Assembly: GCF_000497125.1 (NCBI RefSeq)
Contig: NC_090604.1
Coordinates: forward strand, 330,651 to 394,650
Direction of reading: 5' to 3'
Source of the DNA: Spironucleus salmonicida
Lineage: Eukaryota
DNA: 64,000 bases
Below are positions 1-63,650 of the stretch, one piece after another (position 1 is the stretch's first letter; every line of letters begins with the position of its first letter). The notes under the pieces are model-generated. The model searched no databases, was not told where the DNA came from, and was given only the letters and a program-made list of their open reading frames with translations. Position numbers and translations under genes: made by a program.

Positions 1-676
1 TGCCAGCCGCGCGCCCGAAATACCGAACCAAAAACCGCACTGCAATACACACTTCGGAAGGAACTGCTGCGACAACGGCAGCTGCTCCTTTTCCGTTGAT
101 TTCGCGCGCATACCGCTCTGGGATAACTAAACCTCCAAATCTGACCGGCCGCAAAATGCCTTCCTGAAGCTACATAGCTGCAGACTTCCAGCTCAGTACT
201 GCCTGGCCCCACTCCTTAGCAGTACAGATGTCTTCATTTAAAATCTTAATCTGGCACAGCTGTGGGGGGCGGAAATTATAAATTTGTCTTGAGCGAGGGT
301 TCAAGGCTTGAAAGTGCAAATTTGCTATTTTTACGATTTCCCTCATTGCCGGAACACGCGGAATCGAGGCTGCGCAAAACCTGCAAATCGCTGCAAGTTC
401 CAGCCTCGAACTAAGCAGATTCTCGGTCTGTCTGGATGGAAGGGTACTGCGCGTAAGGGAATGAAAACTTTCCTGCAGCGGATAAATATTTGCGCGCCGG
501 CTTCTAAGAACGCGCATTTGGCCGTTTGCGCCTGCTTAATTGAAAGCAAAACGAGCAGGGTGAAACAATTGTTGGGCGATAAATTCAGGTTAGCATAGGG
601 TCAGACTGTGGATAGCAGGTGTAGCGTTTCGAATTAGCGCTGTGGGCGGGTATTATTGCTGGATTTTAAGTTACAT
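1..676 (-). CDS. Hypothetical protein, 5' part (runs off the window); inverted copy of 30348-31226
   Basis: ATG at 676, open in the TAR=Gln code; near-identical to the reverse complement of 30348-31022; head-to-head with the selenoprotein gene. Confidence 0.6.
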
Positions 677-813
677 GAATATTAATATTATATGGATATA
701 ATTATATAATATTTTAAGAAACCTAATATAATTCCAATCCTCATCAATAATATTATTATATAATATTAAGATGTTATACAAAACTCTCCCACTTCGAACT
801 TCCGCTCCCTCAC

Positions 814-1041
814 ATGGAAATCAAGGTCGTGATGTGTTAGTCCTGAGGCTCCATGCCCCGCTTCAAGGGTCTCCAGGCGTTCCTGAAAGGAAAGCTTGGC
901 GTAGAGGCTGCCTTCGAGTATGGTGCTCTGGGCGACTTCGAGGTCTTCGCCAACGGAACCCTCGTCTTCTCCAAAGCCAAGGAGGGCGCCTATCCCAGTC
1001 CCCCCGCGGTGCTGGCGGCGATCGAGGCGCTCGGGGCATGA
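814..1041 (+). CDS. SELENOW: Selenoprotein W / Rdx-family selenoprotein, 75 aa (MEIKVVMCQSUGSMPRF...LGDFEVFANGTLVFSK...YP)
   Basis: CxxU motif (TGT TAG TCC TGA, with TGA at 844-846) plus the Rdx GxFEV...LVFSK...P motif; SECIS immediately downstream. Confidence 0.92.
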
Positions 1042-1048
1042 AAATGTA

Positions 1049-1118
1049 AACTGAAGCTGTGACGTGGGCAGGATAAGCGCGAGCCCCTGCTAACTGAGTT
1101 TTGTTAATTTCTTCAGTT
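1049..1118 (+). promoter_or_regulatory. SECIS element, GUGA_AA_GA type
   Basis: Helix I AACTGAAG(1049-1056)/CTTCAGTT(1111-1118); GTGA 1059-1062, 12 nt, AA 1075-1076, 19 nt, GA 1096-1097; helix II GTGGGCAGG/CCTGCTAAC; apical GC-GCGA-GC mini-hairpin. Confidence 0.85.
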
Positions 1119-3049
1119 ATCTGCTATATTTCCTTTATTTGGCATTTCTATACTTCTTTTATATTGCTCGTGGTATCAACAATTTTGTAGTTAATAGTAC
1201 TTTATAGTTTCAGAATTACGCCTTACACCTAAGAATCAAATTCCTTTATTGAAACTAAGTTAATTAGCTAGGTTGCTTTTACTTATATACACAAAATTAT
1301 ACATTGGTATTGACAATTTGTTATAAACAGCAGGTTAATTCATTTATCTTGTTATCATATAGTAGATACGTTAAATATGTATTGTTATATCTAATTAGCA
1401 AACACGATCTCGGTTATTTATAAAACTTCTATTACGGTCCATAAGTATGATTATAAGTATATTTTATATTGTATTTTATAGTTTAATATTAATATTAAAT
1501 AATATCCATATGGATAAATTATATAATAATCAATAAAATTAAAGACTGTTTTAATAAAAGTTATCGCGATTCTGATGCTAAATTTCCAGAAATTTCAATT
1601 GCAGAGTTTAAAGATTTGGTAAAACAACTTTATAACTAAATACAAAACTGTTGTCTTAGATCTTTACATTATCTAAGAAGTATCATCCTAATATAGGTTC
1701 TCAAAGTATTTAAAGTGTCTTTGAATCATTTTTTACATATAGCTTCATTATTGCCTATTAAATCTCCGCTATATTGTTAAGTATTCATCGATATTTTCGA
1801 AAATAATATTTATATGTTATATTCAAGTTACAGATATAAATTTGGTAACTAGGATATATACTAATTACGCACCATTAGAGTTATCGATTTCAATTTTTTA
1901 GCAATGTGAATTGTTTTTTATATGTTAACTTAAATTATTACGTCTCTATATACCCAAACCCATTTTGACTAGAATTTTGTGTTTAAAAATGCAATGAAAC
2001 AACAAAATTGTTATAAAAGAATGATAAAGACTTATTTTATGTTACGCAAAAATGTGAATTATAACCAGAGATGCTCTTATAATACCAATTTTCCTCTGGA
2101 ATTAGATGTTCTACATCTCCATATGCTACTCAAGACCTTTTAATGTGCTTCTTGTAGCATCATGATTTGCACTCTTTTGCATAATAGCAACTAATATCTG
2201 TTTGTTTTCGTGCTTACGCGCCCCTTCTTGTACCAGAAGACAATAGATATAGCTTGAATCTCATGACACGAAATATAAAATAATCGACAGATAAGCTTGA
2301 ACTGATTATAGAATGCCTTACGAACGGATATGGCGAGGTTTTCCACTTAGATTCTAACGCCGTAAATCTATCAGACTTTTCCAGTAAAATAAAGTAAAAT
2401 CAGGAAAATTTAGCAGCAAAGCAGCTGGTACGTGCCTATTTACTGTGTTTAACGGCGTTCCTGGAGGCATAATCGCATCGGCCGTAGAAGAGAAGTCGAG
2501 ACACTTTTATTATATCATTAATGTTATAATTATATCATTATATGTATAATACCAAAAACGTCATCACAGATTTCTAGCCTCGCAATTCATCTAGAAACTG
2601 GATTATCGATATCTAATGACGCCTAGCCCATCATCCAGTACTTTGATATCACCTCCTCCACTTACAACCCGCATACAGTAACATTACCACTTTCCGAGCG
2701 ACTGCTAACGCACCTTAACGCACTAGTGAACAACGAATCGCTGCCGACGAACCCGACGGTGAACTTAACGTTAGCAACACAGAAAATTCTTATATCACAT
2801 TTCCTAATTTCAATTTCAATTCAATTTTCCACTCCCAAAATTCACATTTCCGAAGCGCTCAAATTCCCCAAATTCAGCTTCCGGAAGTCCTTTTCGCACT
2901 TGCCAGTCGCCGTCTTCGGGCTCGCAACCCTTGAGGTAGTACTTTTGAGCCGTGAATTGACGCGATTTGCAGCGTTTTGAGCCTCATGCACCAGGAGCAA
3001 ACCGCGGGTTCGCTCGCTCTGCTGATTTTGGGTATGTTCGGTATTAATC

Positions 3050-3091
3050 TTCCAGATCGAGAGGTCATGGGTTCGACTCCCGTTGATCTAC
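3050..3091 (+). pseudogene. 3' half of a tRNA (Trp-CCA-like), 5' half absent
   Basis: TT CCA GA TCGAG AGGTC ATGGG TTCGACT CCCGT TGATCTA C then T6; no D-arm or 5' acceptor strand upstream. Confidence 0.6.
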
Positions 3092-3219
3092 GTTTTTTAA
3101 TTTCGCAACAGTTAGTATTCCCGCACATTCGCCCACTCCCAAAACGCCTTCCGCGTGTGTTTTAGCCGCAAATTGAACCCACTGAACCTTGCTCGCTTCA
3201 ATTTCCGCGTTTCGCAAAA

Positions 3220-4030
3220 TCGAGGTATATGCTCTGCGACCTTTTCAGTTACTATTTGGTCATCCAGAATTCTTCTTGTCGTAGGTATTTTCTTGCTTCT
3301 CTTAGCAAGGTGAGATGCTAATTCTCCGGTTGAGCCCACGCCATTAAGATGCCAGCAATCGCCATAGTTTCTATTTTCTTATTTCAGCTCTCGTTATCTC
3401 TAGTAATCCGAATTTCTATAAACTTACTGTCAGGTTCGCAGGCAGCGCAATGCCCGCCTATCTGAGTGCGGCAGTCGGCACGCACCGGAGCTATGTTTTA
3501 GCTAATTACAGGCCGCGCAGTATACAGCGCCTAGTACGTGTAGGCAGAGTCGCTGGATATGTTCCGCGGTGAAATATTAGCCGTTCCAAATTACCGCAAA
3601 TCGTAGGGCAGATACCCTCAGGTATTATGAGATAGATGATGTTATCTATCTCAGCAGATACTTTTCACCATGTTCTGGGGCATTTCCCACCACACTTTCG
3701 GCGCCTCTTGGCCGGGAGGTCGTGGCAAAGTGCTCCGATTCCACCGTAGTCGCCGATGAATTCTCTAGCTCCAGAGAGAAAGTGTTGCGGCACTGCAGGC
3801 AGGTGTTCGCATCGGAGAACGAGGTAAATACGACATTGGTCATTTCCATAAAGGCTCCAATGAGGAATTCCAAACGTGCAATTCCTGGGTTTACCTGGCG
3901 ATATAGTTTTAGCACGTGGACTTCGCAGTAGTATCCATATTATGTACCTATACTGATTGCACAAGGTGGGCGCAGGTTCACAGAAACAACCAACTTTCGG
4001 GTCTCGCCTGGTGTGGGCAGGCCGGAGGAT
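3220..4030 (-). pseudogene. Decayed CRMP-like relic (approximate limits)
   Basis: Inverted copy of ~26990-27800; residual GYYCE, SDANTCLQC and AIAGI..VGSxGELASHLAKRSKK motifs with frameshifts. Confidence 0.5.
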
Positions 4031-4866
4031 CAGCTAAACGCATACGAACGGGTCGGGGTAGGATGGAAACACAGGCGGTTGGAGTTTTAAAGATAGAGCA
4101 GTTCCGTTGGAAGGTAGCGAGACACGGGGAGGTGGGTGCCCAGGGGTTGAACTAGCGTACCGAAGCATGTTGAAACGAATTCCTTCTTAGGGATAATGCA
4201 TCAAAAATATTACAATGGCAGCTTGCATAAAATCGGTGGGAGGAGGCTAGGCAGTGAGAGCACTGCAAATAACAAAGGAGCATGCCCGTAATATAGGGGT
4301 AGGGATAAAATGCTGCGTCTGCGCTAGGTGCGAAAGTGCGGCAGTGAGCAGGCGTATAGGGCCAATGCAAATTTATGCAATTGCTGGGTAGTTTATAGAT
4401 GTTTGATCTATAATAGTTTAAGATACCTGCTCGGGGACAAGCTTTCCGCCAGAAACGGCCATTAGCTGGGTGCCGAACTTTCTGGATACCGACTGAGGGT
4501 GTAAATAGTGTGCTGGTAGACTGAAACCTCTTAATAAGGGTCCTGGGGTGTTTTATAATATTGGGTATCACATCAATCCTGCTAGGTATGCATTATAAAA
4601 CTGAATGCTGAATAATCTACATTTATATATAGTAAGATACCGCAGTAGTAAAATGACGTCCTCAGCTAAATTTTGCTGAAACTGCGCGGCCCTAGCAGAA
4701 ATGCACTCATGGCGAGTAGTAGTCTTTACTGGTCACGCTACAGTCTAAATTGCCAATGTATCATGCCATTGCTCGAAGTCGGCTTTAGCACCTCTCGACG
4801 TGCATACTATTGAAATATCCGAGTGGAAAGCTTAGCATAAACGTGCAGGAACGTATATATTACCAA

Positions 4867-5934
4867 TCACTGTTACTCCACTCTCTTCTTCGCCTTTCTA
4901 ATGAAATAATAAGCCAGGCCGCCACCAATTGCCCCAACGACCAACAAGACTCCAATGACGATGCCCGTGACTGCCCCACTGCTCAAATTCTGGCTATTAA
5001 CTTCCGGATCTGGATTAGACGGCGTGGGAACTACCGGGACCGGAACAGGTGGGGAAGGCGGCACAGGTCCGGGTACAGGAGCAGGTGGTGTGGGAACATC
5101 CGGTTCGGGAGTTACCGGGTCTGGACCAGATGGTTCTGGAGTAGGTGGTTCTGGAACAGGGGGTTCTGGAATATTTGGATCTGGAGTAGGTGGCTCAGGA
5201 GCAGGGGTCTCAGACCAGCACATCCCGCCAATGAGCTTAAACCCAGTTGCACAGTCCCTACACGAACTACCTTTTGTAATAATAGCATTAGTAAGACACG
5301 TTTTGCACTTATCTAACGTAGAATTACAGGAAGCGCAATTGGTAGCGTACCTACATATACAGGCTGAATCAAGCCCTTCAGCACAGGGTGTAGCCACTCC
5401 CTCCTTGCAGTAGTTACCATCTGTAATATCATCACATTTAGGAGTACATGTACCTTGAATTGTCGTAATATGCGTTCTCCAATCGCACGAGTTGCAAACC
5501 GTCGCCGAGGAGCAAATATCGCAGTCATCAGCACATTTCACGCACCTCTTTGTGGACATATCGCAAAATGTTGAACGTTGACCCTTGCAGTCTTCATTAT
5601 TATTGCAGACTCTGACGCATTTGCCATCTTACATTGTGAACCCAACGGCGCATTTCTAGCACGAATTGGAATCGGCACATTCAGCACAATCCTTTTAGCA
5701 GTCAGAGCAAACTTTTCCATTAAGATAAGATCCAGGGAGGCAAGTGGCGCAACTTCCTCCTGAACATGTCTTGCAGTTTGTTGTCACTATATTATATTCA
5801 CAGTAGCAGCCCTGGCCGAATTTCATGTCTTCTGTGCACGGTTTACAGGGAACACTTATATAATCAGTAGCTGGGCAAAAATGATCTTCCTGGCACCTAG
5901 TGATACGGATAGTACATGTTCCAGGATTTGTCAT
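4867..5934 (-). CDS. Cysteine-rich membrane protein (CRMP, VSP-like), 355 aa, long Pro-rich stalk, tail [10 protein letters not shown]
   Basis: One ORF when TAR=Gln; CxxC/CxC repeats; [31 protein letters not shown]. Confidence 0.93.
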
Positions 5935-8111
5935 TTTAAAAATAGAATATGGTATTTCATCTGATAATATATAAGCAACCCGTTTTTTGGTTTTTAACCT
6001 TCATGAGACATGCATATATATATATTACTTTATGCTATAATTTAAAACCAAACTCAAATATTTTTAGTTTGTGATTGTTATATAATGTCAAATATATGGC
6101 ACAAATATAAAAGAAACTTAACAAGACAAAGATATTGAATTTTATCTAACTGAACGCCAAGACAACGAGCAGCAGCCCACAATCAAGCGTGCACCGCTCT
6201 TGCCCATTTTCCAATACTTCCACTCCAAAATATATTTAATATAATATTACCTTCTAATTATACAGCTGCACTCCAAATTAGTAACCCACATTATTATACA
6301 CTTACTATCAGATTTAGACAAAGTCGGCCCACCAGCGTAAATGTCCTTTGGCGTTTGCACCTCCCAAAGCCGCTAAAACGCGAGTTGACACTGTCCAAAT
6401 TGCGGCACCTAAACATTGTAGTTCCCTTTATCCAGGAGCGCAGCCCCGTTGCACTGCATTTCTTGGCATCGGCTATTGTACCTATTTCGTTCCAGAGTCA
6501 GATTTTTTGGCACAGAGCCGGCCCGAGCAGCATGCGTCTAGTTGCAGCAAGTGTAGCGGTGGGCAGGCCGTGTGCTGCTCTGGGTTCAGCTTGTCGAGCT
6601 GGGACGCCATCCAGAGCTACGAGGTAGCGGTGACCGTCTACACCGTGGGAGACCGCATAGGAGGCTGTAGCGGGGTGTCCGGCTGGATTTAGGTCGTCGA
6701 GGTGTAAATGTGAGATATTTTTGGGTTGAAGCGGGACAGGGAATATGTATTGTTATAGTCTGGGCTGAACTATTTTGCTAAATGGAGGGGTGAGGAGGCT
6801 GGTCAGGGGAAGGATGGGGCGATTCACTGTGTCTAGCAGTGGATGGGATAGTTTCTAATTCTTTTTGGAGTAGGAGGATGGGTAGAGTCTCAAATCCAAA
6901 AATAATTGCGCTTTTTGTTGGCGGAATACAGAACAAAATTTACCGGTCAGCAAATACTAATGATGGCTTGGATTTGTTTTACTAATGGTTTTTATGTTGC
7001 CTATCGCATGATTCGAACAGCTGGGAGTGAAGATGCGCCAAATAAACCTAGATTTGGTCGATTTGGACTGTAAAGATAGTGGAAATCTATAATTTTACTA
7101 TAAAAATAAAACTCGTATTGGGGTATTTAGGTTGCAGAATTTTCACGACATTATTGTTTGATTCCTAGATCTTATTTAAGTATTTTTTGATAAATTTTGG
7201 AGTCAATATTTATGTTGTTAATCAAAACTTATATTCAAAATACATAGGTAGATCAAGGGTATACTTTGTTTACAGTGAGTATTTGAAAGAGAGCTGCAGT
7301 GATTCGCAGAGGTTTATTTTTTAATTGTTCTCATATTTATTAGATTTTACTACGCACTTATTATAATTATAATCTAAATACTAATGTCTGCTTACTGTCG
7401 CACATTTAACTCATATAGAATTAAATGTTACGATAAATATTTATTTTCGAAATAGTATATTTTTAATTAATATCATTTAGCTAAAAATATATTAATACAT
7501 AATGAAGTTTTTGTGTTAACATCGTTATACAAATGTTGTTCATTCTTGTGGAGTCAATTAATAACATGGCATCTGATTGTCATCAATAGATGCAAGTAAA
7601 CCAAATATTTAGTTTGCTAATATTTGAAGTACTATTAATTTAACAAATGAGAAATAATAAGTGATTAAATTGTAGTATAGTTTACACCAATTCCAGATAA
7701 CACTATTTTTCAAATATTTTATTCACAATATTTACGAATAACGAGCTGTACCTTTTTTCTAAAAGGATCTAGCACTAGTAATATATATTATTAGGAAGCA
7801 GAATGTGTAGCCATATACATGAAAAAGCTTCCTATACAAGATCAGATGTATTGATATTAAGTAATAAGTCGCGATTATCAAGCACATACATCTGCACTTA
7901 TCGGGTTTCAAGAAGTTAGCTATGTTATGGTTTGCAACGTGAATTAGAAAGTGACTTATCTTTTTGAAAACCTGGTAAATGCAAATTTGTGGGCTGTGAA
8001 TGGTGAATTACTACTTTACTGTATTTATAGAGTTTCAAAAAGCTTCGATATTTTCTTGTTCATATCTCGAATGACAAGCCTGGAAACTAGCATATATATT
8101 TGTTTTGTGAT
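4890..8111. repeat. Arm of a second inverted duplication (partner ~34645-37710)
   Basis: 5935-8111 is nearly the reverse complement of 34645-36819; similarity continues into the CRMP gene. Confidence 0.9.
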
Positions 8112-8595
8112 GGAGATCTGCTACTAAAGTAAAAATTACACTTTGAATCACTAACAGTGCAGATTTTCTATAATAGATTTTAAATTATATGTATATTTAA
8201 AATGAAAATGATATGAAAATGAGCTTTATAGTCGATTCTATCCGTGAAATATATTTATTAACTTATTCAATACTTGGGTATACATGAGTAATAAAATTAT
8301 TAAAAAGTGATTAAAATAACTAACGTAATAAACTTTTTAAGGGATAATATTTTTCATACAACACCCGGATTTCTTTATGAATAACTGCCATACACTATAA
8401 TTTTTTTAATATAATCCATATAACTTCTCCACCAATACTACATGCTGCTGTTGCTGTCATGCCATCACAACATTTTACTTCCAGTTAAAACACAATAACT
8501 GCGTTGGTTTACCAAAACTCGCCATTACATCTTAAATACTTGAAATACAGAAAATCTTTTTCATTGGCTCCCATTAAAAACTCTATAGCAATTAT

Positions 8596-9240
8596 TCATC
8601 CGAAAATATTACCCTACAGATCGCCCGACGCTATTAATTATTGCAATACATAATATACCGCATGTATCAACTTCACCCAGCTAATCTTGCCATTCTAGCG
8701 CTATAATTTTCCACAATCGCGAACAGTACCTCCCGAAAATTGATCTATTGACTACAATTTCTCCATTTTCTCAACCAATAATTCAGCAAATGCACCCTAT
8801 CCAGCTACACTACCCATCTTAAGAAATTGCTTAACTGCCTGCAGATCGTTTCTACTGATACAACGAATTATCTTCCTACAAACCACTTAACGGATACAAG
8901 CACTATTCCAGCTTAGCCCTTCGCTAATTTTGTAAAACCACGCTACTTTACGATGATAGCAGACGCCGATGCCTATCCGTAGCTGCTCCAACCCGTTGCA
9001 GCGCATCGCTAGCGTAAAATCCCGAAAATGCGTCTAGATACACCTTAAAATAGAAACGGATAACTTGTATAATACAATATATTCAATCCGCACCATTCCA
9101 AATCTGCAGCAACCCAATATCCAATCCAAATTGACCACACACGCTCTACCTTCTTTATACTGCGCATACTGTCTTAGAAACTTATAAACGTCAACTTCCG
9201 CCCCAAAATCACTTATAAACCACAATTAAAAACTTACCAT
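8596..9240 (-). CDS. Possible hypothetical protein, 214 aa
   Basis: Open from ATG 9240 to TGA in the TAR=Gln code; weak BRCT-like 'VVNLDWILGC' only. Confidence 0.25.
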
Positions 9241-9581
9241 ATTTTATATAATATTAACTTAATATAAAAAAGCAAAAAACGCAAATTAATTCTACCGCAT
9301 TTCCGCTCAGCAAAACCGCAAAATCGAAGCCAGAAACGGCCGGGGCGCGCGCCGATTCCAGAGAAAGTTTCGTGCGAATTTCGCTTTTCAGCAAATGCCT
9401 CAAAATCGAAATGCCGCCATCCGAACGCCGAGAAAACGACATTTTGAGACAAATTCGCACGCAGGAGCAGCCGAAACGGTCCTTATATACCCTGATAAAT
9501 TATAAAATTAGAAAGGAATTATCTATTATATAGGATATAATAATGTATATATTTTTAATTCACCACTCCACTACAATTAAT

Positions 9582-10094
9582 ATGCCCGACATGAACATGA
9601 TATGGCTAGTTATCAACCTTGTTAGTGCGGTTTTGCTTGCCGTTTCGACCATAAATGCGTTCCTCTTCGCCACCGCCAGCGCGGTTTTCACATCTCTCCT
9701 TTTCCTTTTCGCTGAAATTCTCATCTGCATCATCCCCTGGACTGCGGCGCTTTTGCCTTATTTCGGGTTCCTGAAATCGGGTGTTGGCGCTCCGCTCCTT
9801 TTAATCATTATAGCCTGTTTTTATATATATAATATATAAAATTTCTGCAGCAGATGGGACTTCTGCTACGGCCAAATTGTTGGTATAATCGTTGTGGCTG
9901 CGATGGTGGTGGAGCTGGTGTTCAAGAAAGACGAATTAAGCGCGGAAATGCAGAAGGCAGGGGAGGGCGTGAGAGCGAATACTGAGTTTGCGAAGGGGGA
10001 GTTTAAGAGCAGGGGGAAGGGGAAGTAGAGTTAGGGGTAGTAGGACGAGAAGTAGCAGAATGAGATCACAACAGGCGAAGAGCTTGTTGAGTGA
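9582..10094 (+). CDS. Multi-pass (about 4 TM) membrane protein, COPI-associated/TVP15-like, 170 aa
   Basis: Hydrophobic helices; YFGFLKSGVGAPLLLIIIACFY; paralogues at 58210-58713 and 63028-63552; upstream CCACTCCAC; ends GAG TGA. Confidence 0.75.
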
Positions 10095-10203
10095 ATCAAA
10101 TGAACGTTTTTGCAACATGTTGTTCTTGCAAGTATTTTAAAATAATTGATATTGGGTACAAAAATAATAGGTATTCCTTATATACTGTATAAATATAAGA
10201 TAT

Positions 10204-10277
10204 GCCGGTATAGCTCAGTTGGTTAGAGCGCGACACTAGTAATGTCGAGGTCTTGGGTTCAAATCCCAATATTGGCT
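10204..10277 (+). tRNA. tRNA-Thr(AGT)
   Basis: Full cloverleaf; anticodon arm CGACA CT AGT AA TGTCG. Confidence 0.97.
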
Positions 10278-10391
10278 ATTTATGTAAAACACGATTTATT
10301 TAAAGATGAAGTGTTTAACTGTAAAATTTTATGATATACGTTATTATATATTAAAAATTTAATTAACACTTTCACCACTTCAATATCAATC

Positions 10392-11402
10392 ATGGATAAA
10401 ATAACTAACTAGTGGAAAAAAGTAGTTAACAAGCTTTCCGACATTGAAATACTGATTTAAGCAGCAACAACTCATAAAACTACCTGGGGTCCAACAACCC
10501 AGGATATGGATAAAATTATCATGATGCTTCCTTCTGATCGCGATCGTGGGATCAGATATATATTCATGACAATGTAGGAGCCGAAATCTGACTGGAGAAC
10601 GGTTTATAAGTGCTTGCTACTAATAGAATACATGTCTCTCAATGCTGACGAACAAACGTTAGATTATTTAAGACGTCAAATTCACGATGTTAGACGCATG
10701 ATGCAGTACACATTCAGAGATAGCGAAGGAACTGACAAGGGAATCAATATCCGTAAACGTGCTGAAAGTGTAGCAGAGGGCTTAGAAGACTAGGATCTTT
10801 TCCAAAAGAGAGCTGAGAACTAGCAGAACAAATCCAAGTACACTTAGGCAGTTGGAAGTGGATTTTCAGGCAACTATTAGTCCCAATCTAGTAGTTACCC
10901 TGCTGCTCAGTCATATGACTCTGGTAATGGTTTTTTGTCTTAAAACCAATATCCTCCTTAAAATTCATATTAACCTCAGTAGAACTAGTTTGCTCCTTAA
11001 CAGCAAACCAACAACTATGCAGCAATGCAGCCTTCTAACCAATTCGCGCCCAAGTAACCTGTTTAAAATCAGTATGCACCTCCACAAAATCAGTATGCTC
11101 CTTAATAACAAAACTAATATGCCCCTTAATAATAGAATTAATATGCTCCATAATAACAGAATTAATTTGCACCACAGCAGCAAAACTAATTCGCACCGCA
11201 GCAAAATACGTCAAATCAGCTGTAATTTGCACCCGTGCCTGCATAGAATTAATATGCTCCCCCGCCTCAGGCCTAATAGGTGTTTTAGGCTCCAGCGTAA
11301 CAGTAGTAGTTCGTTCCATAATAGCAGTAGCAGTAGGCCCCACAATAAGTTAAGCAGTAGGCACCCAAAGGAAACTTGCTTGATGATTTGCTAGATTTCT
11401 GA
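10392..11402 (+). CDS. ENTH-domain (epsin-like) protein, 336 aa, Q/P-rich tail ending NLLDDLLDF
   Basis: ENTH motifs 'TWGPT', 'DWRTVYKCLLLIEY', 'DKGINIRKRAE'; many TAA/TAG Gln codons; clathrin-box-like C terminus. Confidence 0.92.
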
Positions 11403-11575
11403 GTGAACCATTTTTAAGCTTCATTTAACCTAGAATTTGGGATCGATCCCAACAGGAAATTACGCTAATTTTAGATAAATATCCCATTAAATATAAGTGA
11501 CCGTAATAATTTGTTTGAGCCTGGCTCGAACTCTGGGTTGAAAAAATAAAGAAATTTTAAAACTCAAACATTAGA

Positions 11576-11815
11576 TCACAAGTTGCCGGCGTGGAACTTC
11601 TGGTTGATTAATCTGAGGTGAGACATACGACCAGTACCTTGAGTTCTTCTGGCTAAAGCCTTCTGAGACCAGTTATACTTTCTCATGTGAGCCTGAGGGA
11701 AGGCACATGAAGCACACTGGCCTTTCTGGATATGAAGGGAATGCTTGCCGCAACGAGGGCAAGTCTCGTGAAGACGAGAGTGACGTTTACCTTGAGCTTA
11801 AGTACCTTTGGTCAT
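11576..11815 (-). CDS. RPL37: 60S ribosomal protein L37 (eL37), 79 aa
   Basis: MTKGTQAQGKRH...CPRCG...CASCAFP...YNWSQKALARRTQGTGRMSHL; missed by the ORF track because of a TAA at codon 6. Confidence 0.97.
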
Positions 11816-11983
11816 TCCGCACGTGGAGTGGAATTGAGAAATTAAAATTACTTCATTTACTATTATTATATCTTTATTATCTTTATTACCAAAAAAGTTT
11901 TCCAGCCCAATTTTTCAATTTAACATTATTATACATATTAACCGTACATTCCATATTCCGCTTCTTACCATTCCAAATTTTAT

Positions 11984-13099
11984 ATGCTGCACGCTGCTTT
12001 TGTAGACCAAGTCCGCACACAACAGACCCCGTCCCGCGTTACGATCGCGAAACTGAACCCTGAAAATCAAACACACGACCGCCCCCACTCCTACGCTTGC
12101 ATCGTCGCAGGGCGCTCCCCGACCTCGGATATAGTTTTGCGCGACCCCTCAACTTCGCGTCTACACTGCATAATATACTTCAAAAACGACACTCCTTTCA
12201 TCCGCGACCTCGATTCCAGAATCGGAACTATCGTCAACGGCCAGCAAATCCCGTCATTTAAAGACTTCCCAGTCGCCAAAAACGACGTAATTTCGCTCGC
12301 TGGAGAGCGCTTTTTGATCGTCAGTTTCGACCAAAAAGGAATGAAAAGCGTCGTTCCCGCTTCAGAAATCCTTCAAGAAACTGTAGTAAACTGCCCATTT
12401 TGCGGCGGACAAGCATATTCGTTTTCCGAGGCCATGAAGGCCGTTATAGCCGAAATTGACCTCGTGAGCGCCGAAAACGACAAAATGCTGAAAGACTAGT
12501 AATATTAGAGGGAGCGGATAGTCGAAATTCAATCGAATTTGGCTCGAATTTACTCGCTCCACTCCGCGCATTACGCGAATGTGATATAAGGCAGAAACTT
12601 GATGAACGAAGAAGCGGAAAATAGAGCGAATTTGGAAGGGGAAGAACTCGTGAAAGAGGAGCTCAGAATGAGCCAATTGAGTCAAATTAGCGCTAAAATG
12701 GAAGAAGAGGCCAAAAAAGTGCAATTTAACGAAAAATCACCCGAAATCATCAAAAAGAGCGTTTTTTCGAGCTTTGTGAGCCTTTTTAAGAGCAAAAAAG
12801 CCGAGGAGGGCGAGCCTGAGGCCAAGAGCGTTCGCGAGCACAAACCGACGCCTTTTGCAGGTAAAATCGAATATGAGGAAGAAGAAGCGGAAAAGGAAGG
12901 GAACGATAACGTGTTAGAAACTGTATAATAATAGGTTGTTGAAGAAAAACACGAAGGAGAGGAAGAAGAGAAAAATGGAGTGGAAATGGAAGAAAGTGCT
13001 ACTGAGAAAGGCGAGGAGCAGTAGGAGAAGAAGTCTGAGAGTAGCGATAAGCCTCCCAGTTATCATTTCGAGGGCGAACAGAAGCAAAATGAAGAGTGA
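11984..13099 (+). CDS. FHA-domain protein with CPFC motif and Glu-rich C terminus, 371 aa
   Basis: FHA motifs GR..SD, SRLH, DLDSRIGTIVNG; ORFs 11984 and 12599 fuse in one frame; ends GAG TGA. Confidence 0.88.
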
Positions 13100-13393
13100 T
13101 GAGGTTTAAGCTTTTTGGGTAGAAGTGGATAAATTGGTATATATTGTATAATAATGTTGTTTAGATATGAAAATGGAATGTTAATATCTAAAATAACATA
13201 GTTTGGAGGGGTGCAGATATTGAATTTTTGGTGAAAACATATTTTTTACTGAGCAAAATGGATAGTGTGGAATTTTATAAACTGCTAGCTTATGGATAAT
13301 AATACATGTTTCATAATTTGGTTTTTACTTGAGAAACTATATTAAAGATATAATGTATTAAATAAAGAGTGTGTATTTCAGAGTTTCATAAAA

Positions 13394-14539: not shown

Positions 14540-14612
14540 GCTCGTTTAGCTCAGTAGGTAGAGCGTTTGTCTGATAAGCAGAAGGTCCTGGGTTCGAGCC
14601 CCAGAACGAGCA
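14540..14612 (+). tRNA. tRNA-Ile(GAT)
   Basis: Full cloverleaf; TTTGT CT GAT AA GCAGA; followed by a T-run. Confidence 0.96.
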
Positions 14613-18441: not shown

Positions 18442-18512
18442 GCTGAAATAGTATAATGGTAGTACAGTCGGTTGTGGTCCGACTGGTCTGAGTTCAATTC
18501 TCGGTTTCGGCA
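18442..18512 (+). tRNA. tRNA-His(GTG)
   Basis: Cloverleaf; GTCGG TT GTG GT CCGAC. Confidence 0.95.
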
Positions 18513-18618
18513 AATTTTAGGCGAGTTGAGAATGATGATTTGAGCCCGAAGCGGTCTTTCAAGGTGAGGTTTGGCTGATTACAGCAGCCATAACGGCTAT
18601 AAGCAAAAGCTTCCAAAT

Positions 18619-18692
18619 AGCCAATATTGGGATTTGAACCCAAGACCTCGACATTACTAGTGTCGCGCTCTAACCAACTGAGCTATACCGGC
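18619..18692 (-). tRNA. tRNA-Thr(AGT), identical to 10204-10277
   Basis: Reverse complement of the first copy. Confidence 0.97.
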
Positions 18693-20473: not shown

Positions 20474-20555
20474 CGACACCTATGGGATTTGAACCCATGC
20501 GCACAACGTGCAAAAGATTTCTAGTCTTTCGCCTTAACCACTCGGCCAAAGTGTC
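20474..20555 (-). tRNA. tRNA-Ser(AGA)
   Basis: AAAGA CT AGA AA TCTTT, long variable arm, G73. Confidence 0.96.
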
Positions 20556-20919
20556 ATAACTATTTATGAATATAAATATTAGGCTATAATTACATCTGCA
20601 TAATAATTTTTAAAATTAATAACATTAACTATTTATATAAAATAAAATAAAAATTATAGTTATTTGAATTTTTAATCATGTTCAAGTAATAAAACTTAAG
20701 TAATTAATATCTGGAGATGTACTCCACAGTGGATCGCAATTTTCACTATATTCTGGCAACGATAATTTCTCTATAAGACCTAACTTGCTAGTATTCTAAT
20801 TACTGAATAGGGATTAAGATTCCACTATGATGCAAATAATCCTACCTTGTTAACGACAGAATTTTCTTATATACAAAATCTATAATAACATCCTAGATTC
20901 ACCAAAATTCTTTTACCGT

Positions 20920-20991
20920 GGGAAATTGGTCTAGTGGTATGATTCCTGTTTTGGGTACAGGAGGTCCCGGGTTCCATTCCCGGATTTCCCC
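20920..20991 (+). tRNA. tRNA-Pro(TGG)
   Basis: GGGAAAT/ATTTCCC acceptor stem; CCTGT TT TGG GT ACAGG. Confidence 0.95.
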
Positions 20992-26157: not shown

Positions 26158-26989
26158 TTGGTAATATATACGTTCATGCACGTTTATGCTAAGCTTTCCA
26201 CTCGGATCCTCCAAGAGTATACAGGTCGAACAGTGTTAATGCTGACTTGGAGCAATGATATCATAAGTTACAATTTAAACAGTAATAGACCCAGAAAAGA
26301 ACACGATCCCCCATGCGTACACTTCTTCTAGGGCCGCGCAGTTTCAACCAAATTTAGCTGAGGACGTCATTTTACTACTGTGGTATCTTACTATATATAA
26401 ATGTAGATTATTCAGCGTTCAGTTTTATAATGCATACCTAGCAGGATTGATGTGATACCCAATATTATAAAACATCCCAGGACCCTTATTAAGAGGTTTC
26501 AGTCTACCAGCACACTATTTACACCCTCAGTCGGTATCCAGAAAGTTCGGCACCCAGCTAATGGCCGTTTCTGGCGGAAAGCTTGTCCCCGAGCAGGTAT
26601 CTTAAACTATTATAGATCAAACATCTATAAACTACCCAGCAATTGCATAAATTCGTATTAGCCCTATGTGCCTGCTCACTGCCGCACTTTCGCACCTAGC
26701 GCAGACGCAGCATTTTATCCCTACCCCTATATTACGGGCATGCTCCTTTGTTATTTGCAGTGCTCTCACTGCTTAGCCTCCTCCCACCGATTTTATGCAA
26801 GCTGCCATTGTAATATTTTTGATGCATTATCCCTAAGACGGAATTCGCTTCAACATGCCTTGGTGCGCTAGTTCAACCCCTGGGCACCCACCTCCCCGTG
26901 TCTAGCTACCTTCCAACGAAACATGCCTATCTTTAAAACTCCAACCGCCTGTGTTTCCATCCTACCCCGACCCGTTCGTATGCGTTTAG

Positions 26990-27800
26990 CTGATCCTCTG
27001 GCCTTCCAACACCAGGCGAAACCTGAAAGCTGGCTGTTTCTGTGAACCTGCGCCCACCTTGTGCAATCAGTATAGGTACATAATATGGATACTACTGCGA
27101 AGTCCACGTGCTAAAACTATATCGCCAGGTAAACCCAGGAATTGCACGTTTGGAATTCCTCATTGGAGCCTTTATGGAAATGACCAATGTCGTATTTACC
27201 TCGTTCTCCGATGCGAACACCTGCCTGCAGTGCCGCAACACTTTCTCTCTGGAGCTAGAGAATTCATCGGCGACTACGGTGGAATCGGAGCACTTTGCCA
27301 CGACCTCCCGGCCAAGAGGCGCCGAAAGTGTGGTGGGAAATGCCCCAGAACATGGTGAAAAGTATCTGCTGAGATAGATAACATCATCTATCTCATAATA
27401 CCTGAGGGTATCTGCCCTACGATTTGCGGTAATTTGGAACGGCTAATATTTAATCGCGGAACATATCCCGTGACCCCGTCTGCACGTACTAGGCGCTGTA
27501 TACTGCGCATCCTGACATTAGCTAAAACATAGCTCCGGTGCGTGCCGACTGCCGCACTCAGATAGGCGGGCATTGCGCTGCCTGCGAACCTGACAGTAAG
27601 TTTATAGAAATTCGGATTACTAGAGATACCGAGAGCTGAGATATGTTAAATAGAAACTATGGCGATTGCTGGCATCTTAATGGCGTGGGCTCAGCCGGAG
27701 AATTAGCATCTCACCTTGCTAAGAGAAGCAAGAAAATACCTACGACAAGAAGAATTCTGGATGACCAAATAGTAACTGAAAAGGTCGCAGAGCATATACC
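26990..27800 (+). pseudogene. Decayed CRMP-like relic (approximate limits)
   Basis: VSVNLRPPCAISIGTQYGYYCE resembles [37 protein letters not shown] resembles [16 protein letters not shown]; remnant TM/basic tail. Confidence 0.5.
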
Positions 27801-27932
27801 TCGATTTTGCGAAACGCGGAAATTGAAGCGAGCGAGGTTCAGTGGGTTCAATTTGCGGCCAAAACACACGCGGAAGGCGTTTTGGGAGTGGGCGAATGTG
27901 CGGGAATACTAACTGTTGCGAAATTAAAAAAC

Positions 27933-27974
27933 GTAGATCAACGGGAGTCGAACCCATGACCTCTCGATCTGGAA
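27933..27974 (-). pseudogene. 3' half of a tRNA (Trp-CCA-like), second copy
   Basis: Reverse complement of 3050-3091. Confidence 0.6.
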
Positions 27975-29905
27975 GATTAATACCGAACATGCCCAAAATC
28001 AGCAGAGCGAGCGAACCCGCGGTTTGCTCCTGGTGCATGAGGCTCAAAACGCTGCAAATCGCGTCAATTCACGGCTCAAAAGTACTACCTCGAGGGTTGC
28101 GAGCCCGAAGACGGCGACTGGCAAGCGCGAAAAGGACTTCCGGAAGCTGAATTTGGGGAATTTGAGCGCTTCGGAAATGTGAATTTTGGGAGTGGAAAAT
28201 TGAATTGAAATTGAAATTAGGAAATGTGATATAAGAATTTTCTGTGTTGCTGACGTTAAGTTCACCGTCGGGTTCGTCGGCAGCGATTCGTTGTTCACTA
28301 GTGCGTTAAGGTGCGTTAGCAGTCGCTCGGAAAGTGGTAATGTTACTGTATGCGGGTTGTAAGTGGAGGAGGTGATATCAAAGTACTGGATGATGGGCTA
28401 GGCGTCATTAGATATCGATAATCCAGTTTCTAGATGAATTGCGAGGCTAGAAATCTGTGATGACGTTTTTGGTATTATACATATAATGATATAATTATAA
28501 CATTAATGATATAATAAAAGTGTCTCGACTTCTCTTCTACGGCCGATGCGATTATGCCTCCAGGAACGCCGTTAAACACAGTAAATAGGCACGTACCAGC
28601 TGCTTTGCTGCTAAATTTTCCTGATTTTACTTTATTTTACTGGAAAAGTCTGATAGATTTACGGCGTTAGAATCTAAGTGGAAAACCTCGCCATATCCGT
28701 TCGTAAGGCATTCTATAATCAGTTCAAGCTTATCTATCGATTATTTTATATTTCGTGTCATGAGATTCAAGCTATATCTATTGTCTTCTGGTACAAGAAG
28801 GGGCGCGTAAGCACGAAAACAAACAGATATTAGTTGCTATTATGCAAAAGAGTGCAAATCAGGATGCTACAAGAAGCACATTAAAAGGTCTTGAGTAGCA
28901 TATGGAGATGTAGAACATCTAATTCCAGAGGAAAATTGGTATTATAAGAGCATCTCTGGTTATAATTCACATTTTTGCGTAACATAAAATAAGTCTTTAT
29001 CATTCTTTTATAACAATTTTGTTGTTTCATTGCATTTTTAAACACAAAATTCTAGTCAAAATGGGTTTGGGTATATAGAGACGTAATAATTTAAGTTAAC
29101 ATATAAAAAACAATTCACATTGCTAAAAAATTGAAATCGATAACTCTAATGGTGCGTAATTAGTATATATCCTAGTTACCAAATTTATATCTGTAACTTG
29201 AATATAACATGTAAATATTGTTTTCGAAGATATCGATGAATACTTAACAATATAGCGAAGATTTAATAGGTAATAATGAAGCTATATGTAAAAAATGATT
29301 CAAAGACACTTTAAATACTTTGAGAACCTATATTAGGATGATACTTCTTAGATAATGTAAAGATCTAAGACAACAGTTTTGTATTTAGTTATAAAGTTGT
29401 TTTACCAAATCTTTAAACTCTGCAATTGAAATTTCTGGAAATTTAGCATCAGAATCGCGATAATTTTTATTAAAACAGTCTTTAATTTTATTGATCATTA
29501 TATAATTTATCCATATGGATATTATTTAATATTAATATTAAACTATAAAATACAATATAAAATATACTTATAATCATACTTATGGACCGTAATAGAAGTT
29601 TTATAAATAACCGAGATCGTGTTTGCTAATTAGATATAACAATACATATTTAACGTATCTACTATATGATAACAAGATAAATGAATTAACCTGCTGTTTA
29701 TAACAAATTGTCAATACCAATGTATAATTTTGTGTATATAAGTAAAAGCAACCTAGCTAATTAACTTAGTTTCAATAAAGGAATTTGATTCTTAGGTGTA
29801 AGGCGTAATTCTGAAACTATAAAGTACTATTAACTACAAAATTGTTGATACCACGAGCAATATAAAAGAAGTATAGAAATGCCAAATAAAGGAAATATAG
29901 CAGAT

Positions 29906-29975
29906 AACTGAAGAAATTAACAAAACTCAGTTAGCAGGGGCTCGCGCTTATCCTGCCCACGTCACAGCTTCAGTT
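29906..29975 (-). promoter_or_regulatory. SECIS element, second copy
   Basis: Reverse complement of 1049-1118. Confidence 0.85.
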
Positions 29976-29982
29976 TACATTT

Positions 29983-30210
29983 TCATGCCCCGAGCGCCTC
30001 GATCGCCGCCAGCACCGCGGGGGGACTGGGATAGGCGCCCTCCTTGGCTTTGGAGAAGACGAGGGTTCCGTTGGCGAAGACCTCGAAGTCGCCCAGAGCA
30101 CCATACTCGAAGGCAGCCTCTACGCCAAGCTTTCCTTTCAGGAACGCCTGGAGACCCTTGAAGCGGGGCATGGAGCCTCAGGACTAACACATCACGACCT
30201 TGATTTCCAT
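29983..30210 (-). CDS. SELENOW: Selenoprotein W / Rdx-family selenoprotein, second copy
   Basis: Matches 814-1041; Sec TGA at 30180-30178. Confidence 0.92.
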
Positions 30211-30347
30211 GTGAGGGAGCGGAAGTTCGAAGTGGGAGAGTTTTGTATAACATCTTAATATTATATAATAATATTATTGATGAGGATTGGAATTATATTA
30301 GGTTTCTTAAAATATTATATAATTATATCCATATAATATTAATATTC

Positions 30348-31226
30348 ATGTAACTTAAAATCCAGCAATAATACCCGCCCACAGCGCTAATTCGAAACGC
30401 TACACCTGCTATCCACAGTCTGACCCTATGCTAACCTGAATTTATCGCCCAACAATTGTTTCACCCTGCTCGTTTTGCTTTCAATTAAGCAGGCGCAAAC
30501 GGCCAAATGCGCGTTCTTAGAAGCCGGCGCGCAAATATTTATCCGCTGCAGGAAAGTTTTCATTCCCTTACGCGCAGTACCCTTCCATCCAGACAGACCG
30601 AGAACCTGCTTAGTTCGAGGCTGGAACTTGCAGCGATTTGCAGGTTTTGCGCAGCCTCGATTCCGCGTGTTCCGGCAATGAGGGAAATCGTAAAAATAGC
30701 AAATTTGCACTTTCAAGCCTTGAACCCTCGCTCAAGACAAATTTATAATTTCCGCCCCCCACAGCTGTGCCAGATTAAGGTTTTAAATGAAGACATCTGT
30801 ACTGCTAAGGCGTGGGGACAGGCAGTACTGAGCTGGAAGTCTGCAGCTATGTAGCTTCAGGAAGGCATTTTGCGGCCGGTCAGATTTGGAGGTTTAGTTA
30901 TCCCAGAGCGGTATGCGCGCGAAATCAACGGAAAAGGAGCAGCTGCCGTTGTCGCAGCAGTTCCTTCCGAAGTGTGTATTGCAGTGCGGTTTTTGGTTCA
31001 GTGTTCCGGGCGCGCGGTTGTCAAAGGTCGCATCTCTGGACCCGCCACCGGCGTTAATGGGATGGCAAGCGTATTTGACGCGTATTTAGCGCAGGGTTTC
31101 CGCTTTCGTGCATTTCTAGATAGTTTGCAGGAAGGTGGTGCGCAAGCTGGGCCTCTGGTGAGTTTTCCAGGTGCTGAGTCGGCGGAAGTTACGTATTTTA
31201 GGAGTAGGGTATTTGGAATCGAGTGA
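30348..31226 (+). CDS. Hypothetical protein, 292 aa
   Basis: ATG 30348 in frame with track ORFs 30507 and 30870; ends GAG TGA. Confidence 0.65.
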
Positions 31227-57919: not shown

Positions 57920-57990
57920 GCTGAAATAGTATAATGGTAGTACAGTCGGTTGTGGTCCGACTGGTCTGAGTTCAATTCTCGGTTTCGGCA
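57920..57990 (+). tRNA. tRNA-His(GTG), identical to 18442-18512
   Basis: Same cloverleaf. Confidence 0.95.
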
Positions 57991-58069
57991 CATTTTGATA
58001 TTTTAACACCCACCTTAGTATACTCACTTACTAAAGAATTTTCCTTACATCAAATATTCTTATAATTCA

Positions 58070-58138
58070 GGGCTAATAGCTCAGCTGGAAGAGCGCATCG
58101 GAAAGATGGTGACCGGGGTTCAAGTCCTCGTTAGTCCA
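58070..58138 (+). ncRNA. tRNA-Ala-like RNA with a truncated anticodon arm (4-bp stem, GGAAA loop)
   Basis: GGGCTAA TA GCTC AGCTGGAA GAGC G CATC GGAAA GATG GTGAC CGGGG TTCAAGT CCTCG TTAGTCC A; G3:U70, A73; A/B boxes intact. Confidence 0.8.
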
Positions 58139-59341: not shown

Positions 59342-59414
59342 GCTCGTTTAGCTCAGTAGGTAGAGCGTTTGTCTGATAAGCAGAAGGTCCTGGGTTCGAG
59401 CCCCAGAACGAGCA
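59342..59414 (+). tRNA. tRNA-Ile(GAT), identical to 14540-14612
   Basis: Same cloverleaf, followed by a T-run. Confidence 0.96.
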
Positions 59415-59730: not shown

Positions 59731-60072
59731 ATGGGACAGGCAGCATCCGCCACGTTCGTCCAGAAGCAATTCGACGAGCTGGACAGCACTGCCAAAAAGT
59801 GGGACAAGAATGTTAAGAATAAATTGCAGCCGCAAGCTGTGCACCACACGCACACGCCGCACAAGACCATCCAGGAAAAGTACATTATTATACAGCAAAA
59901 GCAAATGGAGACACAGCTGCAAGAATTTGGGCAGAATAACGTTAAAATTACAGCGGACATGAATCTAATTTTCAGCAAGGTCAAGCCCTCTGGCGGCAGC
60001 GACATTATGGAGCTCAGCGAGGAGAACGACAGCATGTTCAGCGCGATCAAGAATAATAAGATGGAGGGCTGA
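59731..60072 (+). CDS. Hypothetical protein, 113 aa, start MGQAAS (N-myristoylation-like)
   Basis: AAAATG start, TGA stop. Confidence 0.7.
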   Translation: MGQAASATFVQKQFDELDSTAKKWDKNVKNKLQPQAVHHTHTPHKTIQEKYIIIQQKQMETQLQEFGQNNVKITADMNLIFSKVKPSGGSDIMELSEENDSMFSAIKNNKMEG

Positions 60073-60190
60073 GGATTGCACTGGGAATTTAGATTAATAG
60101 CGGCAGCAGGACACTGTATTGATGTTTTGTTATATATTATTTTATGTGAACAAATGCATACTCATATTTTATAGTCTCAGCGAGAAAAAA

Positions 60191-60730
60191 TCACATGAAC
60201 TAAAAATCCAGCATGCTGGCAGCGCCGTCATCGCTATCTCCGCCCTCCAGCAGTTAAAACCCCAAAGTTCCTCCTGCGAGCAGCGAGCTGGCCCGAGATC
60301 TAGTAAAAATCTCACCACCAATCCCATCGAGTTGAAAGTTGGCCTCGACGCCTTCGCTTCGAACAGATATGTTACTCTCCATACTGGAGCCTACTAATTT
60401 TAGAATTATGTTGTTATGCTTATTTCGAAGCTGCGATACTGAAAAATTAGGAAAATATAGTTTCTAAATTTCAGTCCAGTTTTTATTATGCTTAGTTGCA
60501 GCTGTAAGTAAGGTATCTGTTTCTTATGGTAACCAATAATGTCTTTTTGCTTGCTTCTTATCCTTATGGATAGTATAAAAATCATAGCATTACCGAGACG
60601 TTTTTGTCTGCATCAGATCCCCTACATGTTTCCAATTAATTTTACCTCCAGTTTGTAGTTACTCTTATATTATTTGCATAACTAAAGCCTGTTCTGTGCT
60701 GGTCCATTTGAAGTATTATTTTTGGGACAT
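60191..60730 (-). CDS. Myb-like protein with two repeats, 179 aa
   Basis: KWTSTEQ...INWKHVGDLMQTKTSRQCYDFY...HYWLPQETDTL...KNWTEIQKLYFPNFSVSQLRNKH; absent from the ORF track. Confidence 0.88.
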
Positions 60731-61103
60731 ATTTACTGGAGTGGTAATTACAAACAAAACATTGATATTATATAATTGAATTTAAAATTTGTGATTCCAC
60801 TTTACGATTATATAATATTATCTAAGTTTAACCCATGCATAATTAAAAATTCTGCATTAATTTCTCCACACGAATACCTTTTGTTAATAATGCTTTATTA
60901 AAATATAAACAAATCACCAAAAGGAAATTATTATAAATTTTTAAATATATAGTATGCAAATTTCTATCGCTTATAATTAAATTTTAAACATATATACTAA
61001 ATTTATAGTAATTATATAATAAGTTACAGTTAATAATTATTTTACTAATAGTATATATTATTACGCTTTGAGTTAACTAGACTACCCAAAAAATATAATC
61101 AGC

Positions 61104-63552: not shown

Positions 63553-63650
63553 TCATAATTAGTAATGATATTATTACGTATTAAAAAACATTTTTAAGTC
63601 ATATAATTATTTATAGAATAAAATATTAAGGTATAGTACGGAAATTTAAA

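Follow-up and report, generated by a model that had tools for sequence, protein, structure and literature searches.

How a ribosome can tell a UGA that encodes selenocysteine (Sec) from a UGA that ends translation is the question raised by a small gene near the beginning of the stretch analysed here, 64,000 nucleotides (nt) of the Spironucleus salmonicida genome (assembly GCF_000497125.1, contig NC_090604.1, positions 330,651 to 394,650 of the forward strand), referred to below as the window. The gene encodes selenoprotein W (SelW), and UGA would serve it both as the Sec codon and as the stop codon. The problem is sharpened by the mRNAs of this species, which normally end about 13 nt past the stop codon and leave no room for a selenocysteine insertion sequence (SECIS). 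We consider it likely that a hairpin lying directly behind the SelW stop codon, with a GUGA...GA core, is a SECIS that has not been reported before. This reading is favoured because of the position of the hairpin, its signature, its transcription and its identity among the expressed variants of the gene.

The genetic code of the source could be judged from the window itself. Open reading frames (ORFs) of at least 150 amino acids (aa) number 11 under the standard code and 114 under translation table 6, the latter count including much noise because TGA is then the sole stop. Among the ORFs of table 6 are matches to CCT/TCP-1 (E 8e-131), to ribosomal protein L13e, to an FHA protein and to cysteine-rich proteins resembling the variant surface proteins (VSPs) of Giardia, and the Pfam matches of CCT, L13e and FHA were obtained only under code 6. 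Within the 480 Pfam-matched codons of CCT there are 10 in-frame TAA/TAG codons and no TGA, and the CCT, L13e, FHA and VSP-like genes all end in TGA. These sequence features support the assignment of code 6, with UAA and UAG predicted to specify Gln and UGA to be the sole stop, and they bear out an earlier interpretation of this DNA made from its letters alone (the sequence-only reading), which had taken UGA as the only stop codon. The source is a hexamitid diplomonad of the Spironucleus type.

The translation of the gene (Table 1) begins with MEIKVVMCQSU when TGA is read as U under table 6. The in-frame TGA within CQSU and the TGA that terminates the gene are both found where the sequence-only reading had placed them. 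Pfam family PF10262 (Rdx) matches residues 3–71 over positions 2–73 of the 74 in the profile (E 4.4e-11; 43.3 bits against a cutoff of 22.6). Residues 8–11 (CQSU) are aligned with CEPC of MIEN1 (2ljk) and with CRQC of the SelW-related protein 2p0g, both solved structures, and U11 stands opposite the second Cys of the CxxC motif in each of them. The alignment supports the view that the in-frame UGA corresponds to the Sec/Cys redox position of the family, and Sec would accordingly be inserted at codon 11. The closest database protein is 'Selenoprotein W [Spironucleus salmonicida]', with 97% identity over its 62 annotated residues, which supports the prediction that 814–1041 is a SelW/Rdx selenoprotein gene that is already known.

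Several parts of the Sec system have indeed been described for these organisms. A 'triple function of UGA' was reported for S. barkhanus and S. salmonicida, along with SelD, eEFSec and a SelW whose UGA stands at the Sec position (PMC2874811), and a supplementary table row of the same paper lists Contig253 as Selenoprotein W1. For S. salmonicida, a tRNA-Sec was found and all 64 codons were proposed to be readable (PMC1805757); tRNA-Sec, PSTK, SepSecS, a SelD-NifS fusion, eEFSec and three SelW paralogs were later reported (PMC3916229), and SelW expression data have been published (PMC6397501). No tRNA-Sec is present among the tRNA genes of the window (Rfam and ARAGORN, run on the window only). 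The selenoprotein proposed by the sequence-only reading, with UGA as Sec codon and sole stop, is therefore real but not new, having been published between 2007 and 2014 (PMC1805757, PMC2874811, PMC3916229).

What has been missing from this picture is the signal. ERPIN detected no canonical SECIS, and discrimination between Sec and termination was stated to be unknown, in the 2010 study (Roxstrom-Lindquist et al., PMC2874811). The word SECIS is absent from the main text of Xu et al. 2014 (PMC3916229) and from the 11 of its 15 supplement files that could be text-searched, and the text-searchable supplements of PMC3916229, PMC1805757 and PMC2874811 hold no data on a SECIS, on SBP2 or on the 3' untranslated region (3'UTR) of SelW. 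No published diplomonad SECIS was found, though most subscription journals lay outside the search, so that this is no proof of absence. In comparison to the published Spironucleus SelW, the protein is the same, with an in-frame UGA at the Sec position and with UGA as sole stop tied to polyadenylation; the hairpin, the long 3'UTR and a second gene copy are additions made here.

The elements of the hairpin are listed in Table 1. Its core has the spacing GUGA-N12-AA-N19-GA, and this core, the nine-position helix II with one mismatch and the GCGA-capped mini-stem are all located as the sequence-only reading had described them. The irregularities of helix II are a G1066.A1092 mismatch and a G1067.U1091 wobble. 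Helix II appears in the minimum-energy folds, with a pairing probability of 0.87–0.97 for six of its pairs in the local fold, and the AA at 1075–1076 is unpaired in all computed folds. The features expected of a SECIS that are seen here include the distance of the AA, the nine-position helix II, a helix III and a placement in the 3'UTR, 3' of the Sec UGA, the last as judged from sequencing runs guessed to be RNA.

Table 1. Positions of the SelW gene, its mRNA end and the elements of the hairpin in the window
Feature	Position	Strand	Details
SelW (Rdx family) coding sequence	814..1041	+	75 codons + stop; translation table 6, TGA=U
In-frame TAG = Gln, codon 9, in CQSU	838..840	+	from translation; code 6
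In-frame TGA = proposed Sec codon 11, in CQSU	844..846	+	212 nt 5' of GUGA core
SelW stop codon TGA	1039..1041	+	7 nt before helix I, 17 nt before GUGA core
Helix I 5' arm AACUGAAG	1049..1056	+	8 Watson-Crick base pairs with 1111-1118; starts 7 nt after stop
5' core GUGA	1059..1062	+	UGA 1060-1062 in frame with the gene (frame 0 relative to 814)
Fourth quartet position	C1063 opposite U1095
Helix II 5' arm	1064..1072	+	pairs with 1086-1094 at 8 of 9 positions
Apical unpaired AA	1075..1076	+	12 nt after GUGA
Mini-stem of 2 base pairs, GCGA loop	1077..1084	+	G1077-C1084, C1078-G1083; as helix III of type II SECIS
Helix II 3' arm	1086..1094	+	pairing with 1064-1072
3' core UGA (GA 1096-1097)	1095..1097	+	possibly also the UGA linked to polyadenylation
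Alternative weak helix I 3' arm	1099..1105	+	minimum-energy fold of 1039-1107
Apparent poly(A) addition site	1106..1107	+	one contig, run X1
Helix I 3' arm of the sequence-only reading CUUCAGUU	1111..1118	+	beyond apparent poly(A) site; in no contig shown
Second SelW gene + hairpin copy	29906..30210	-	other arm of inverted duplication

A hairpin of this kind is rare in the surrounding DNA. We used a SECIS descriptor of our own ([AG]UGA-N9-13-AA-N10-35-GA, helix II with at least 8 of 9 positions paired, helix I of at least 6 base pairs (bp)) on both strands, 128 kb in all, and it matched only at 1059(+) and 29965(-). These two sites belong to the two identical copies of the gene. SelW lies in both arms of an inverted duplication (1–3376 and 27648–31023, 99% complementary), and 700–1300 is 100% identical to 29724–30324(-) over 601 columns. 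Forty dinucleotide shuffles gave a mean of 1.1 sites per 128 kb for core and helix II, falling to 0.35 with a helix I of at least 6 bp and to 0.05 with one of at least 8 bp. A descriptor match within about 150 nt behind SelW would arise by chance about once in a thousand cases or more rarely. Just after the Sec UGA no notable hairpin was seen, either of the bacterial type or like a Sec redefinition element (z -0.39 and +0.92). When helix I is dropped from the descriptor, there is a single chance-level match at 61671, within 60001–64000.

Evidence on the transcript came from contigs of four sequencing runs (X1–X4), all of one study and RNA by guess only, which were compared with the window over 300–1700. 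The runs were treated as RNA-like because they cover discrete stretches only, show Illumina adapter junctions at fragment ends and include untemplated A runs; with contigs that agree fully with the window among them, they look like RNA of this same organism. The contigs give no transcript levels, and uncovered parts were used for the argument on the 3' end only and were otherwise not read as silence. Cover within 300–1700 is restricted to 300–690 and 817–1092/1107. SelW is covered from 817 to 1092 in all four runs, some of the contigs showing 0 differences from the window; the bins 723–816 and 1146–1615 are without contig cover in four of four runs and the bin 1099–1145 in three of four. The last contig stops at 1092 in adapter sequence in three of the runs, and one X1 contig reaches 1107 and then continues as AAAAAAAA, an untemplated A8 in place of the genomic TTTC.

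The A8 end lies 10 nt 3' of the TGA at 1095–1097, inside the spacing of 9–14 nt known for the species (PMC1805757), and no further TGA occurs up to 1160. S. salmonicida 3'UTRs are reported to have a mean of 13.2 nt, with 122 of 134 expressed sequence tags (ESTs) at 9–14 nt (PMC1805757), and the stop codon itself was proposed as the poly(A) signal (PMC1805757, PMC2874811). The SelW 3'UTR would be about 66 nt in length, its exact 3' end likewise being an estimate, and the mRNA would apparently overrun the rule of the species just enough to hold the GUGA...GA core, helix II and the apical part. Taken together, the contigs support the GUGA...GA hairpin as part of a transcribed 3'UTR. The sequence-only reading had regarded polyadenylation before about 1100 as incompatible with its proposal, and the apparent site at 1107 is borderline in this respect.

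The same contigs reveal variants of the gene. One of them differs from the window over 867–1032 by 10 synonymous third-position changes and one Ala/Ser replacement (codon positions worked by hand). A more diverged third variant, with a low depth of 40–70, shows 11 differences in the piece 919–1064 and has an upstream part below 90% likeness; it is probably the third published paralog, located outside the window. Variant-specific contigs (838–932 and 948–1061/62) extend 30 nt to either side of their outermost differences, and these contig ends suggest an assembly with words of 31. The contig of the third variant ends at 1064, and a single shared contig spans 1033/1035–1092. The three expressed variants would thus be identical over about 58 nt (1035–1092), a piece that takes in the terminal TGA and the larger part of the hairpin. 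At the rate of the whole coding sequence (11 in 166 nt) these 58 nt should hold about 4 differences, and at that of third positions about 10. The identity is consistent with selection on the 3'UTR.

On the basis of these observations, the following course of events can be proposed for SelW. UGA codon 11 within CQSU would be read as Sec, and the hairpin directly 3' of the stop, which is of the kink-turn (K-turn) type, would be the SelW SECIS, a type II element with a GUGA core. The mRNA would escape the usual polyadenylation about 13 nt past the stop and continue through the hairpin, poly(A) being added most likely near 1107, about 10 nt past the 3' UGA of the hairpin, and the 66-nt 3'UTR would be almost wholly SECIS. 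The terminal UGA would be read as a stop, termination being the presumed default at UGA. With 1039–1041 in the A site, the ribosome would already mask or unfold the base of the hairpin, 7–17 nt downstream, and leave it inactive on that codon, and any leak past the terminator would stop at a second in-frame UGA (1060–1062), seven codons on and inside the hairpin. This may be the reason why the last UGA terminates.

That distance alone separates the Sec UGA from the stop UGA is a plausible conjecture. The sequence-only reading had started from a need for about 50 nt or more between a recoded UGA and its SECIS, and this premise is contradicted in two ciliates: the minimum spacing of 51–111 nt given by Martin et al. 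in 1996 reportedly does not hold for the thioredoxin reductase of Condylostoma and Parduczia, whose Sec UGA stands shortly before the SECIS (PMC4967479). These cases argue against a universal minimum distance.

The least settled part of the hairpin is helix I. The eight Watson-Crick pairs drawn by the sequence-only reading are present in the DNA, while the 3' arm of that helix is probably outside the mature mRNA in view of the A8 end at 1107. A less likely but serious contender to the reading given above is that the functional mRNA extends past 1118, that the SECIS includes this 8-bp helix I and that the A8 end is a minor isoform or an artefact. The helix is improbable by chance: within the search space allowed, 81 of 20000 random flank pairs offered eight such pairs, as did 44 of 7220 AT-rich 3' flanks when matched with the real 5' flank. 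The helix adds about -5.4 kcal/mol and has a pairing probability of 0.83–0.99 in the local fold of 1039–1125. RNA 3' ends are, moreover, always poorly covered, and the A run occurs in one contig only. However, no contig shown goes beyond 1107, the bins behind it being empty as described, and the A8 end conforms to the spacing rule of the species (PMC1805757), with no TGA up to 1160 that could set a later site. The 8-bp helix also leaves a lopsided internal loop, 2 nt on the 5' side against 13 nt on the 3' side. Loops of such proportions are unusual for a SECIS. In the minimum-energy fold of 1039–1107 the 5' arm pairs with 1099–1105, forming seven pairs with two G.U among them and a bulged U1052, and the energy of this alternative helix I is marginal, at +2.5 kcal/mol relative to helix II alone (nearest-neighbour model).

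Of the open points, the apparent coupling of the 3' UGA of the hairpin (1095–1097) with the poly(A) site holds the greatest interest. This TGA precedes a U-rich tract, whereas the TGAs at 844, 884, 1052 and 1060 precede GC-rich sequence and the stop TGA at 1039 precedes A-rich, U-poor sequence. The zone in which stop-linked cleavage would be expected, 1050–1055, overlaps the 5' arm of helix I. A doubtful further step would be to regard the SECIS and 3'-end formation as fused into one device in SelW. A GC-rich SECIS and not a U-rich tract would then follow the SelW stop, and in the nascent RNA the 8-bp helix I (1049–56/1111–18) would hide the cleavage zone. Polyadenylation would be deferred to the next UGA with a U-rich tail, that at 1095–1097, with cleavage at about 1107. 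Cleavage would in turn remove the 3' arm of helix I, and the mature SECIS, without a canonical helix I, would adjoin the poly(A). The UGA at 1095–1097 would serve both as K-turn core and as poly(A) determinant, and the UGA at 1060–1062 as a backup stop.

A number of results weigh against the hairpin being a SECIS, in addition to the lopsided loop and the marginal energy of the two forms of helix I. On the side of the transcript, the four runs share one study and the guess that they are RNA, and only a single contig, from X1, defines the 3' end. The mean depth in X2–X4 is 351–1805 for the shared 3'UTR contigs compared with 3315–13191 for the coding contigs; the lower depth may be an end effect, or only some transcripts may reach the hairpin. 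On the side of the structure, the mini-stem has only 2 bp, and the folding energy is no different from that of shuffles (z -0.45 to -1.27). With respect to the published core consensus, UGAN / KGAW with tandem G.A/A.G pairs (PMC3753652), the 5' core UGAC fits UGAN, but the 3' core UGAG, while fitting K, G and A, has a G at W. The element offers no covariation in its support, being invariant and identical in the two copies of the window, and gene conversion could be an alternative source of the identity among the variants. The Rfam 15 covariance models gave no SECIS match at gathering score in the whole window and none at E up to 10 on 621 nt or 90 nt; this outcome of Infernal with the Rfam models agrees with the warning of the sequence-only reading that standard searches could miss the element. 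Lastly, the accessible text of PMC3916229, PMC1805757 and PMC2874811 mentions no SBP2 of this species.

Some of these points would also fit a hairpin that is conserved and transcribed without being a recoding signal, which we regard as improbable. It would then act in 3'-end formation, bind another K-turn protein or owe its identity to gene conversion, and the Sec signal would be elsewhere. The missing Rfam match and the lack of a reported SBP2 agree with this, as does the absence of a SECIS from the S. barkhanus ESTs in the ERPIN search (PMC2874811). Of the weak Rfam matches touching the K-turn letters, the best is a C/D-box model for a snoRNA, sR33, which reaches 9.4 bits on 90 nt (E 5.5). 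A box C/D snoRNA is not supported, sR33 being far below its gathering score of 37 bits. The hairpin does share with the box C/D K-turns bound by L7Ae/Snu13 a UGA on one strand, a CUGA on the other and putative tandem sheared G.A pairs, but in contrast to box C/D RNAs it is without a full C box and a guide region and sits in an mRNA 3'UTR. A full C box reads RUGAUGA. What speaks for a recoding role instead is that the full SECIS signature (RUGA, N12, AA, tandem GA opposite, nine-position helix II and mini-stem) stands just where a SECIS is required, downstream of the one selenoprotein gene that the window contains, and at no other place in the 128 kb, that no competing hairpin follows the Sec codon and that the species has Sec machinery of the eukaryote/archaeal type (PSTK, SepSecS and eEFSec, PMC3916229).

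It is very improbable that UGA codon 11 is not recoded and that the product is a 62-residue protein from Met14, or the gene a remnant. In favour of this, the public SelW entry (P0002) is annotated from Met14 onward only and starts MPRFKG, two relatives (P0003 and P0004, with 84% and 79% identity) likewise begin at MPRFKG, and Sec insertion in SelW is given without biochemical demonstration in the accessible text of PMC2874811 and PMC3916229. However, any TGA halts the ORF callers that produced the public models. The first strand and the CxxU motif come from the 13 codons ahead of Met14, whose alignment to the family profile begins at position 2, and a product that started at Met14 would be without the redox centre. 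The authors of both papers, moreover, took the UGA as Sec, and the species has Sec machinery. Scans of metagenome contigs and of genome contigs for related DNA gave one locus each (L001, and L002 from a metagenome-assembled genome of Steroidobacter); both were rejected as bacterial false positives, with 55% identity over residues 28–58 only and no CxxU context.

As a candidate SECIS, the SelW hairpin is best compared with the type II GUGA_AA elements of Chlamydomonas, Ostreococcus and a sponge, with which it shares a G before the UGA quartet, the unpaired AA, a helix II of nine positions (8 paired), an extra mini-helix and a location in the 3'UTR. GUGA had been called a rare variant by the sequence-only reading, whereas GUGA_AA prevails among the SECIS elements of some green algae and a sponge (PMC3473315). 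The SelW hairpin is different from these elements in its 3' core (UGAG, not KGAW), in its mini-stem of 2 bp and in having no Rfam score. It also stands 7 nt past the stop and about 10 nt before the poly(A), and the canonical helix I may be missing in the mature RNA.

Sec decoding in an organism with reassigned stop codons is reportedly known from Tetrahymena, as described by Shrimali et al. in 2005. A parallel is also offered by the ciliates Condylostoma and Parduczia, in which UGA is both stop and Sec, UAA and UAG are not stops, 3'UTRs are short and termination depends on the position with respect to the end of the mRNA (PMC4967479). Unlike ciliates, Spironucleus belongs to Metamonada, and its UGA is additionally tied to the choice of the poly(A) site.

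Upstream of SelW, the stretch 300–690 is also transcribed, with contigs of up to 900 nt in all four runs. An X4 contig shows an untemplated A10 after 690 (+ strand), 12 nt past a TGA at 676–678, and the strand of this transcript is ambiguous: no ORF of the + strand ends near 690, and a long ORF occupies 2–676 on the - strand (292 aa in the other copy). This ORF matches only a 242-aa protein (P0005).

The inverted duplication that carries the two SelW copies continues in inner arms (3380–4752 and 26271–27643, 95% complementary), and the spacing within the whole duplication (1–4752 / 26271–31023) ranges from 21.5 kb for the inner arms to 24.3 kb for the outer arms. More inverted pairs link 5.1–8.1 kb with 24.5–37.6 and 51–57 kb. 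The region 25100–57500 contains ten copies of a gene for a cysteine-rich, single-pass membrane protein with weak Pfam VSP matches; these include a tandem stretch with a period of 2600 nt at 39.5–45.6 kb, and one of the types of C-terminal tail reads ...YYFVRRAKK. Nine tRNA genes were identified with Rfam (10204–10277, 14540–14612, 18442–18692, 20474–20991, 57920–58138 and 59342–59414), with identical pairs for Thr-AGT (x2), Ile-GAT (x2) and His-GTG (x2), and the one at 58070–58138 (44.5 bits, Rfam) was not called by ARAGORN. The G+C content is 27% in 60001–64000 against 32–46% elsewhere in the window.

The SelW protein and the triple role of UGA were known before, which limits the surprise of the finding; the SECIS candidate is probably new. 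The function of the hairpin as a SECIS is suggested here by its position and form, and a candidate with mapped coordinates turns the open question of Sec versus stop into one of mutagenesis and 3'-end mapping. If the hairpin does act as proposed, it would be a very compact SECIS, of use for training SECIS finders that now miss such elements, and it would be the first SECIS described for Metamonada, as far as the literature was searched.

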